Shown here piece after piece: positions 42,330 through 43,160 of a stretch of DNA of 64,000 nt (position 1 is its first letter; every line of letters begins with the position of its first letter). The position numbers and the translations under genes were made by a program. This DNA is from a virus (lineage: Duplodnaviria > Heunggongvirae > Uroviricota > Caudoviricetes). A model generated the notes under the pieces. That model was not told where the DNA came from and made no database searches. It was given only the letters and a program-made list of their open reading frames with translations. The stretch is from the IMG/VR virus record IMGVR_UViG_3300025122_000007, positions 37,620 to 101,619 of that record; one strand, written 5' to 3'.

Positions 42330-43160
42330 GCTTGCTCTCCCTTCCAGATGTTGGTGGCGACCAGGTCCTTGAGCGACAAGGACCCCGGCAACCTGTAGAC
42401 GTCAGCTCGTGGAGGCATGGTCGCCCAGATCTTCTGGGTCGACGGACACACCGCCGCCACATGAAAAACACATGACTTCATTCTCAACCTCTTCACAAAG
42501 CTCATCACAACAAAGCTCATCACCTTCAGGTAGAAAGCTCTCCTTACACACAAAACAAATCTTCAACTGTACTTGCTCCTTTACTGTATCTGTACTAGAG
42601 TTAGGGACAACTGGTCTTAGTGTCTCCTTGGGTCTTTAGACCCTTAACTCCGGGGTTAATGAATAGACCAATGATCTCAGCAGCTTAGGTCTCTGGAAGG
42701 CTCTGTATACTGGGTTCTTGATGGGTTAGATGACCAGCTGGGTCCCCTAACCCAGTATACAGAGAAAGTCCAATGATTCCAGTCACTTAGACCCCTTTCC
42801 TACCTCTTCCAAACCCTATGTTCCTTCCTCCTAGAACCCGCTTGGTAGCGGAGTCGTTGAGGTTATTGTCAGTACCGCTTAAGCTTCCCTGCTTAAGCAC
42901 CTCTGTCCAAACCGCCTCTCCTGCTCTGCCAAGTTAGTAACAAACCCTGTCTTATCAGGCAGTTACAACAAGACGGGTACAAAGGAAGGAACGAATCAGG
43001 GTGCTCTTATATAAACCATGGGGACGGTTTACCTCCTTGGTTGGTTATTGTAGCCTAAGGGCGGACTGGCTGGAGAGGTCAGATAGCGTAAATCCGAAGG
43101 ATTGCAGCACTAGACATCTCTTGACACAAAACGCCCTTAGGTCACTTTCTCCTCTCTGGG
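42330..43160. repeat. repeat-rich noncoding region
   Basis: Perfect 16-bp inverted repeat CTCTGTATACTGGGTT (42701-42716 and 42749-42764), GGGTCTTTAGACCC palindrome, and repeated CAATGAT...CTTAGGTCTC/CACTTAGACCCC units. Confidence 0.6.

Follow-up and report, generated by a model that had tools for sequence, protein, structure and literature searches.

The window, here the whole 64-kb stretch of DNA that was analysed, comes from an uncultured marine giant phage and contains, between two groups of minus-strand genes, a stretch of 594 nt that carries no gene (hereafter the core). Giant-phage genomes are densely coding, thus a constrained gene-free stretch of this size (about 600 nt) is likely to be a regulatory place. 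Our preferred reading, which we put forward tentatively, is that the core is an inter-operon control region in which promoter-like signals feed a structured leader or a noncoding RNA. The first-pass annotation of this DNA had proposed a candidate origin, packaging or regulatory site, and it is the regulatory option that stands: the core lies between minus-strand gene groups, appears to be under purifying selection, is syntenic in a distant relative (contig L060) and contains two or three copies of a signal specific to intergenic DNA. As a kind of element it is not new; what is new is its sequences, with a signal not described before and perhaps a new RNA.

Setting and limits of the gene-free core

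All genes that flank the element are on the minus strand (Table 1). The region belongs to a block of high GC content: GC steps from ~45% to ~58% at ~35 kb and remains high for ~22 kb, to ~57 kb. The junction is also present in independent assemblies, and is thus not a chimera. Many assemblies from JGI, ENA, Logan and NCBI contain near-identical contigs (up to 194,898 nt), and the strain contigs are 99.8-100% identical. The phage is present, among others, in JGI 3300025141, 3300002514 and 3300025112, in ENA ERZ27249004 and ERZ27249011 and in Logan SRR5251701. Nearly everything encoded in the GC block (~35000-57000) is an ORFan; among 5.8 billion clusters, between 0 and 2 relatives were found for its 942-, 284- and 164-aa proteins. 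No Pfam, PHROG or PDB entry matched the 284-aa protein, encoded next to the core, and modelling of its structure gave nothing usable (pLDDT 39-40). The 164-aa ORF on the other side gave no informative Pfam or PHROG match. Further along the same strand, positions 39491-41529 (-) hold a cluster of ADP-ribose/NAD-related genes (a SLOG/DprA-like gene, NADAR, DUF4326 and a macro-like 'phosphatase'), which may be an anti-defence island. On the opposite side, five to six small genes for predicted membrane proteins at 44442-47205 (-) have similar N-termini (MRDFF.., MRSFL.., MDTLK..) and look like tandem paralogues.

The first 1-27 kb of the window (array 1227-27104) contain 30 tRNA genes, identified with Rfam and ARAGORN, and every one of them lies on the minus strand. 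One of them (6035-6108, minus strand) has the anticodon CUA, of the amber-suppressor type, and is labelled tRNA-Pyl by ARAGORN. It may serve TAG read-through or recoding in some phage genes; the element itself is no such gene.

The interval 42330-43160 had been described as a region where no ORF is supported. At one end this proved incorrect: two overlapping minus-strand ORFs, of 54 and 75 aa, lie in 42326-42566, and gene callers picked either of them across assemblies. Codon statistics favour neither. These ~240 nt are probably one small minus-strand protein gene, encoding either the 54-aa or the 75-aa product, and fall outside the noncoding element; the gene-free core is therefore 42567-43160. 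Inside these limits, none of the six frames is open under reassignment of TAG, TGA or TAA, and all six carry mixed TAG, TGA and TAA stops. A recoded gene was thus rejected in spite of the CUA-anticodon tRNA of the phage.

Table 1. Features in and around the core. Positions are those of the window unless another contig is named.
Feature	Position	Strand	Basis or remark
284-aa gene, upstream of the element	43161..44015	-	directly precedes the element in all three lineages
Gene-free core, 594 nt	42567..43160	-	bounded by the 284-aa gene stop and the small ORF start
H1, irregular hairpin of 98 nt	43048..43145	-	begins 16 nt past the stop of the 284-aa gene
CAAUAAC junction, AAGGAGG, then small hairpin UAAACC[GUCCCCAU]GGUUUA	43012..43050	-	comparison with L010 and L060
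Mini-ORF AUG..UGA (MVYIRAP*)	42996..43019	-	12 nt after GGAGG; status uncertain
Domain closed by perfect 10-bp repeat GTTCCTTCCT/AGGAAGGAAC	42820..42992	-	arms 153 nt apart
Signal copy 1, ACAGGGTTTG	42941..42950	-	word comparison
Variant signal copy GGTTTGG	42907..42913	-	site listing
Signal copy 2, ATAGGGTTTGG	42809..42819	-	word comparison; 250 nt before the next ORF start
Direct repeat M1 (CUAAG-N8-AUCAUUGG, gene strand)	42767..42790	-	direct-repeat search
Hairpin of 64 nt with perfect 16-bp arms	42701..42764	-	inverted-repeat search
Direct repeat M2	42665..42688	-	direct-repeat search
Palindrome GGGTCTTTAGACCC, predicted hairpin GGGUC-UAAA-GACCC	42630..42643		sequence and folding
54-aa Cys-rich ORF (CFVC...CFSC)	42402-42566	-	Shine-Dalgarno AAAGGAG 9 nt before the TTG start
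75-aa ORF	42326-42553	-	stop overlaps the ATG of the next gene
164-aa ORF with C-terminal CxxCxGxG zinc finger	41835-42329	-	other flank of the originally annotated interval
Other signal sites in the window	35011-35018, 35035-35042, 44252-44261, 44383-44389	-	(AC)AGGGTTTG or GGTTTGG
Signal sites in L060	9651, 9790, 16019, 18833, 18860

Conservation in a close and a distant relative

For the close relative, the only one found, there are two short contigs, both of them from sample 3300010883. L010 covers a homologue of the 284-aa gene (72% amino-acid identity) and the first 226 nt past its stop, ending at the equivalent of 42965; L011 covers a homologue of the 164-aa ORF, and the genes upstream of that homologue are unrelated to those of the window. 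Over the first 196 nt of the core, the part covered by L010, which lies 5' of M1, the 16-bp hairpin and M2, 180 positions are identical to L010 (91.8%). In the same comparison, identity is 59-76% at fourfold sites in the four flanking genes and 78-79% in two further intergenic regions, and the excess identity of the core is significant (binomial P < 1e-8). Identity jumps exactly at the stop codon of the 284-aa gene. The sole indel of L010 in the element is a 30-nt insertion at the apex of H1, the lower two thirds of which are 100% identical; the module at 43012-43050 differs by a single substitution, A to C at 43037. No SNP was found in the core across 11 strain contigs. The L010 substitutions do not point to a reading frame, 8 of the 16 falling into the best codon phase (P about 0.13 by our own binomial estimate), and an antisense ORF of 103 aa (43001-43312, plus strand) was rejected, the substitutions showing no third-position bias in its frame. 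All together, there is good evidence from the sequence comparison that the first 196 nt of the core are under purifying selection as noncoding DNA.

The distant relative was found by a profile search of 1.84 billion representative proteins, which returned one further homologue of the 284-aa protein (P0007, 32% identical). Its contig, L060, is collinear with the window over ~15 kb and has ~700 gene-free nt directly after the homologous gene; small ORFs unrelated to those of the window come next, then macro-domain and DUF4326 genes as in the window. The ADP-ribose/NAD-related genes lie downstream of the gene-free stretch in L060 as well, and a second gap of ~450 nt is present there at 12030-12478. 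Neither local nor global alignment of the two noncoding stretches was significant, and the local score did not exceed that of shuffled sequences; homology therefore rests on short words and synteny. The two stretches have 34 8-mers in common when read on the same strand; the opposite strand gives 5 and shuffled sequences 5.7 +/- 3. They are also reciprocal best matches among all sliding windows of both loci. Words found in both include CAATAAC, AAGGAG(G/C)TAAACC, TGTACCCG, GAATCATTG, CTGGTCATC and TAAGGG..CCAAGGAG, and AGGGTTTG occurs twice in each. Two L060 modules are similar to 43012-43050, one reading AAGGAGCUAAACC..GGGUUUG (11133-11168) and the other CAAUAAC..GAAAUC..GGUUUG (10927-10970). 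The L060 counterparts of the small hairpin UAAACC/GGUUUA are UAAACC/GGUUUG and AAAUC/GGUUU.

The mini-ORF within the core was compared in the same way. All three differences between the window and L010 in this frame (43008, 43002 and 42999) are synonymous and at third codon positions. The mini-ORF is absent from the matching place in L060, where the AUGGUUU of the window is replaced by CAGGGUUU, which weakens the case for a conserved leader peptide. L060 has its own mini-ORF, MMSGGWPP*, after a strong Shine-Dalgarno sequence at 10988-11014 (plus strand), and both end in a proline codon and a stop. Located at positions that do not match, these Pro-stop mini-ORFs could be chance occurrences or leader peptides.

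No further copies of the element were found in the annotated phage collection or in IMG/VR (both searched as DNA and as protein), or in metagenome and genome collections. A scan of IMG/VR with the module pattern gave 40 matches, all chance, and two metagenome and two genome-collection scans (one by DNA pattern, one by protein profile) gave nothing or chance matches. Homologue searches returned no relative of the 942-aa neighbour and one of the 164-aa neighbour. The phage lineage is rare.

An intergenic signal and a set of nested repeats

The short word present twice in both noncoding stretches is part of a signal, (AC)AGGGTTTG, that is specific to intergenic DNA. The words GGTTTG, GGGTTT, GTTTGG and AGGGTT are the top intergenic-enriched 6-mers of the gene strand in both phages. 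In the GC block of the window, GGTTTG occurs 7 times in 2.9 kb of intergenic DNA vs 0 in 17.4 kb of coding DNA (5 vs 0 in L060), and GGGTTT/GGTTTG sites are intergenic and on the gene strand in 8 of 9 cases in the window and in all 7 in L060. AGGGTTTG is also found at two other syntenic intergenic sites in both phages, and at five sites outside the element the nearest signal copy lies 29-52 nt before the first start codon. The tandem pair at 35011/35035 follows a terminator-like hairpin (35050-35077), an arrangement that is repeated at the matching site of L060. When the intergenic region ahead of the small gene that lies before the 284-aa gene was aligned three ways, ACGGTTTGGT and ACAYAGGGTTTCCCT stood out as its chief conserved islands.

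We read (AC)AGGGTTTG, which is strand-specific, all but limited to intergenic DNA, located a short distance before first starts and conserved in relatives, as a candidate phage-specific promoter or promoter-proximal control signal, at or near which transcription of the minus strand would begin. To our knowledge it resembles no promoter consensus, and a literature search for the motif returned unrelated primer sequences only. Predictions of sigma-70 promoters and of intrinsic terminators gave 0 sites of either kind in 42000-43500. A two-part reading with -35 and -10 elements, ATCATTG plus AGGG, was rejected because L010 does not keep ATCATTG. The signal offers a way to define operons in this uncultured lineage, hardly any of whose genes are annotated. 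Within the element, 250 nt in the window and 263 nt in L060 separate the last copy from the next ORF, a distance that implies a long untranslated RNA.

The core is also rich in repeats, several of which had been noticed in the first reading of the sequence. The perfect 16-bp inverted repeat with a 32-nt spacer is present as described (CTCTGTATACTGGGTT / AACCCAGTATACAGAG, 42701-42716 / 42749-42764). No perfect inverted repeat with a loop of up to 80 nt is longer anywhere in the window; the runners-up, of 12 bp, are terminator-like hairpins between genes. Within the 64-nt unit, an inner imperfect repeat of 14 bp competes for the AACCCA/TGGGTT segment. The unit is not a full palindrome and no recombinase was recognised among the ~26 ORFs scanned, thus a protelomerase-type telomere was rejected. 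The palindrome GGGTCTTTAGACCC was likewise found where it had been reported. Reiterated CAATGAT...CTTAG units do exist but number only two, M1 and M2, which flank the 16-bp hairpin, lie 102 nt apart and are 75% identical over 24 nt. The pattern CTAAG-N3-CTG-RR-ATCATTGG has 2 exact matches here vs 0.16 expected, and CTTAG/CTAAG occurs 5 times in the core vs ~0.65 expected. As for the reported short AT-rich stretch, it amounts to merely ~10 nt (TTATATAAAC, 43009-43018): the lowest GC content over 60 nt is 37% (42540-42599), and inside the core it ranges from 42 to 57%.

These repeats are hierarchically nested. H1, at the 5' end, has at its base a perfect 10-bp inverted repeat (CCTAAGGGCG/CGCCCTTAGG) with arms 68 nt apart. 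The domain at 42820-42992 encloses nested local hairpins, among them two palindromes GCTTAAGC (42877-42884 and 42891-42898). M1, the 64-nt hairpin and M2 come next, followed by three short hairpins.

Leader, separate RNA or other kinds of site

In the reading that we favour, the upstream gene group would end at the 284-aa gene and be followed by a conserved stem-loop domain (H1 and the small hairpin). Two or three copies of (AC)AGGGTTTG would then act as promoters or promoter-proximal control sites, and transcription from them would pass through a folded RNA of 250-380 nt before it reaches the downstream group, made up of small accessory genes that change fast. M1, M2 and between them the perfect 16-bp hairpin would be part of this RNA, together with a number of short hairpins. 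This RNA would be a long leader that sets the expression level of the downstream operon, by processing at the long double-stranded hairpin, by pausing, or by protein binding at M1/M2; it is plausible that the long perfect hairpin is a site of processing, pausing or protein binding.

Such an arrangement has known counterparts. Some inter-operon regions of phages combine stem-loops at the 3' end with promoters and with long double-stranded hairpins at which the RNA is processed; the RNase III sites that separate the T7 early genes are an example. Like these, the element is intergenic in a series of genes on the same strand and has long, near-perfect hairpins without a U-tract and promoter-like signals after the preceding gene group. 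It is much longer, however (~600 nt), and its cleavage and start sites are putative. Long structured 5' leaders and attenuators offer a second comparison: ~250 nt separate the last promoter-like signal from the next start codon, and alternative pairings are possible around the 16-bp hairpin, but the element has neither an Rfam riboswitch or leader match nor the U-tract of a terminator.

A close rival, although we consider it rather improbable, is that the core encodes one or several stand-alone structured noncoding RNAs, of ~600-700 nt or as two to three smaller molecules, with their own promoters and acting in trans, perhaps with the 284-aa protein. This overlaps the leader reading and differs from it solely in cis versus trans action. 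The constraint spans the whole of the first 196 nt, beyond what short footprints would need, the length and position of the stretch are kept in three lineages beside the same ORFan gene, and the signal copies are distant from any ORF; the partner protein proposed by this reading, on the other hand, resisted annotation and modelling.

Predicted folding bears on it in both directions. Helices are nested, and H1 folds with -38.1 kcal/mol (z -5.1); in L010, where the 30-nt apical insertion lengthens the helix, the values are -48.7 kcal/mol and z -4.8. Direct reading of the small AAAYC/GGUUU hairpin shows two wobble-compatible changes, U-A to U.G and C-G to U.G, which keep the UAAACC/GGUUUA pairing on the gene strand only. 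In L060, the gene strand of the gene-free stretch gives the better fold (z -6.9, vs -4.0 for the antisense strand), and direct reading of its leader shows a long hairpin with a C(UUCG)G loop at the tip. As for the window, the two strands of the core fold about equally (z -4.0 minus, -3.3 plus), and the core does not exceed the local background, ranking 10th of 18 same-size windows of the GC block (mean z -2.6 +/- 1.8); its 300-nt halves give z -2.1 and -1.2. No compensatory base changes were seen, and the three L010 substitutions in upper H1 all weaken predicted pairs. RNAalifold on three sequences gave a covariation term of about zero (0.03), the comparison covering a close relative that is partial and a distant one that cannot be aligned. 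GNRA-type tetraloops, which are usual in large folded RNAs, were not seen among the predicted hairpin loops of the window element. The structural case for the core as a folded RNA is thus weak.

Known RNA families gave no lead. With Rfam 15 (4227 models), tRNAs only reached the gathering threshold in the window. The element resembles GOLLD and ROOL in being several hundred nt long, noncoding and located in a tRNA-rich large phage; unlike them it matches none of the 4227 models at E up to 10, apart from chance-level miRNA and snoRNA matches of at most 18 bits. L060 gave chance-level matches of at most 22 bits, far under the gathering scores. The models of GOLLD, ROOL, group I/II introns, riboswitches, tmRNA and RNase P had no match in the region, nor did ARAGORN find a tRNA or tmRNA there. 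A CsrA/RsmY-like GGA sponge was rejected: AGGAG and GGA counts are ~1-2x those of the gene-strand background, and the RsmY match scored 16.7 bits vs a gathering score of 57. We would give the same rather small chance to an undescribed family of large phage noncoding RNAs, with its own (AC)AGGGTTTG promoters beside a conserved ORFan, in a rare marine giant-phage lineage; such an RNA might form an RNA-protein complex that controls or protects the ADP-ribose-related accessory island. If the folded RNA is a stable species, it would define a new large phage RNA family; if it is not, the core would be an ordinary, though unusually long, control region.

It is quite unlikely that the core has no function as a unit and merely represents a gene-turnover hotspot, made of decayed small genes, ordinary terminator and promoter pieces and perhaps micro-ORFs. 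The small genes in the slot between the element and the macro-domain gene (window 41835-42566; L060 11423-12478; L011 1-386) are indeed unrelated from one lineage to the next, several being Cys-rich, and the slot is itself a hotspot of gene turnover. Moreover, AGAGGAGAAAGTG starts a 56-aa ORF in L060, whereas in the window 2 codons are followed by a stop and in L010 the GTG is gone, and Shine-Dalgarno-like words accompany the mini-ORFs of the window and L060. Against decay stand the 92% identity to L010, vs 59-76% at neutral-like sites, the lack of strain SNPs, the similar-length gene-free stretch kept in L060 and substitutions without overall codon periodicity.

Finally, a site acting at the DNA level, a replication origin or pac bound by the 284-aa protein as initiator or small terminase, with the repeats and palindromes as places where protein binds, is very unlikely, because every testable defining feature is absent. 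Like iteron-type origins (lambda ori, plasmids), the element is noncoding and combines repeats and dyad symmetry beside an uncharacterised gene: M1/M2 direct repeats flank a perfect palindromic hairpin, CTAAG-type words are enriched, there are several perfect palindromes (GCTTAAGC twice, GGGTCTTTAGACCC), and an unannotated protein adjoins it in all lineages. Sequence that turns over fast next to a protein co-evolving with it is characteristic of origins. However, the element has no regularly spaced tandem iterons (TRF gave one repeat of 15 nt x 1.9, inside the small ORF, and none in L060), an AT-rich unwinding stretch is missing from the core, and cumulative GC skew does not turn at this place, falling steadily through 42-43 kb, with its minimum at ~55-58 kb; the origin proposed in the first-pass annotation fails on these three points. 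Nested repeats over a long range, with arms 68 and 153 nt apart, are also more readily explained by a folded single strand than by binding sites on duplex DNA. Terminase, replication or recombinase domains were not found among ~26 ORFs scanned (35-57 kb and other parts of the window), which leaves the packaging site without support. Origin and packaging can probably both be dropped, whichever RNA reading proves right.

Comparable features occur elsewhere in the window. A second gene-free gap, of ~470 nt, lies at 34154-34622, just beyond the GC block. Within the block, the minus-strand segments 51567-51866 and 55167-55466 have folding z of about -7 vs shuffled sequences, well beyond the element; the latter spans an intergenic gap (55307-55508) with several strong hairpins.
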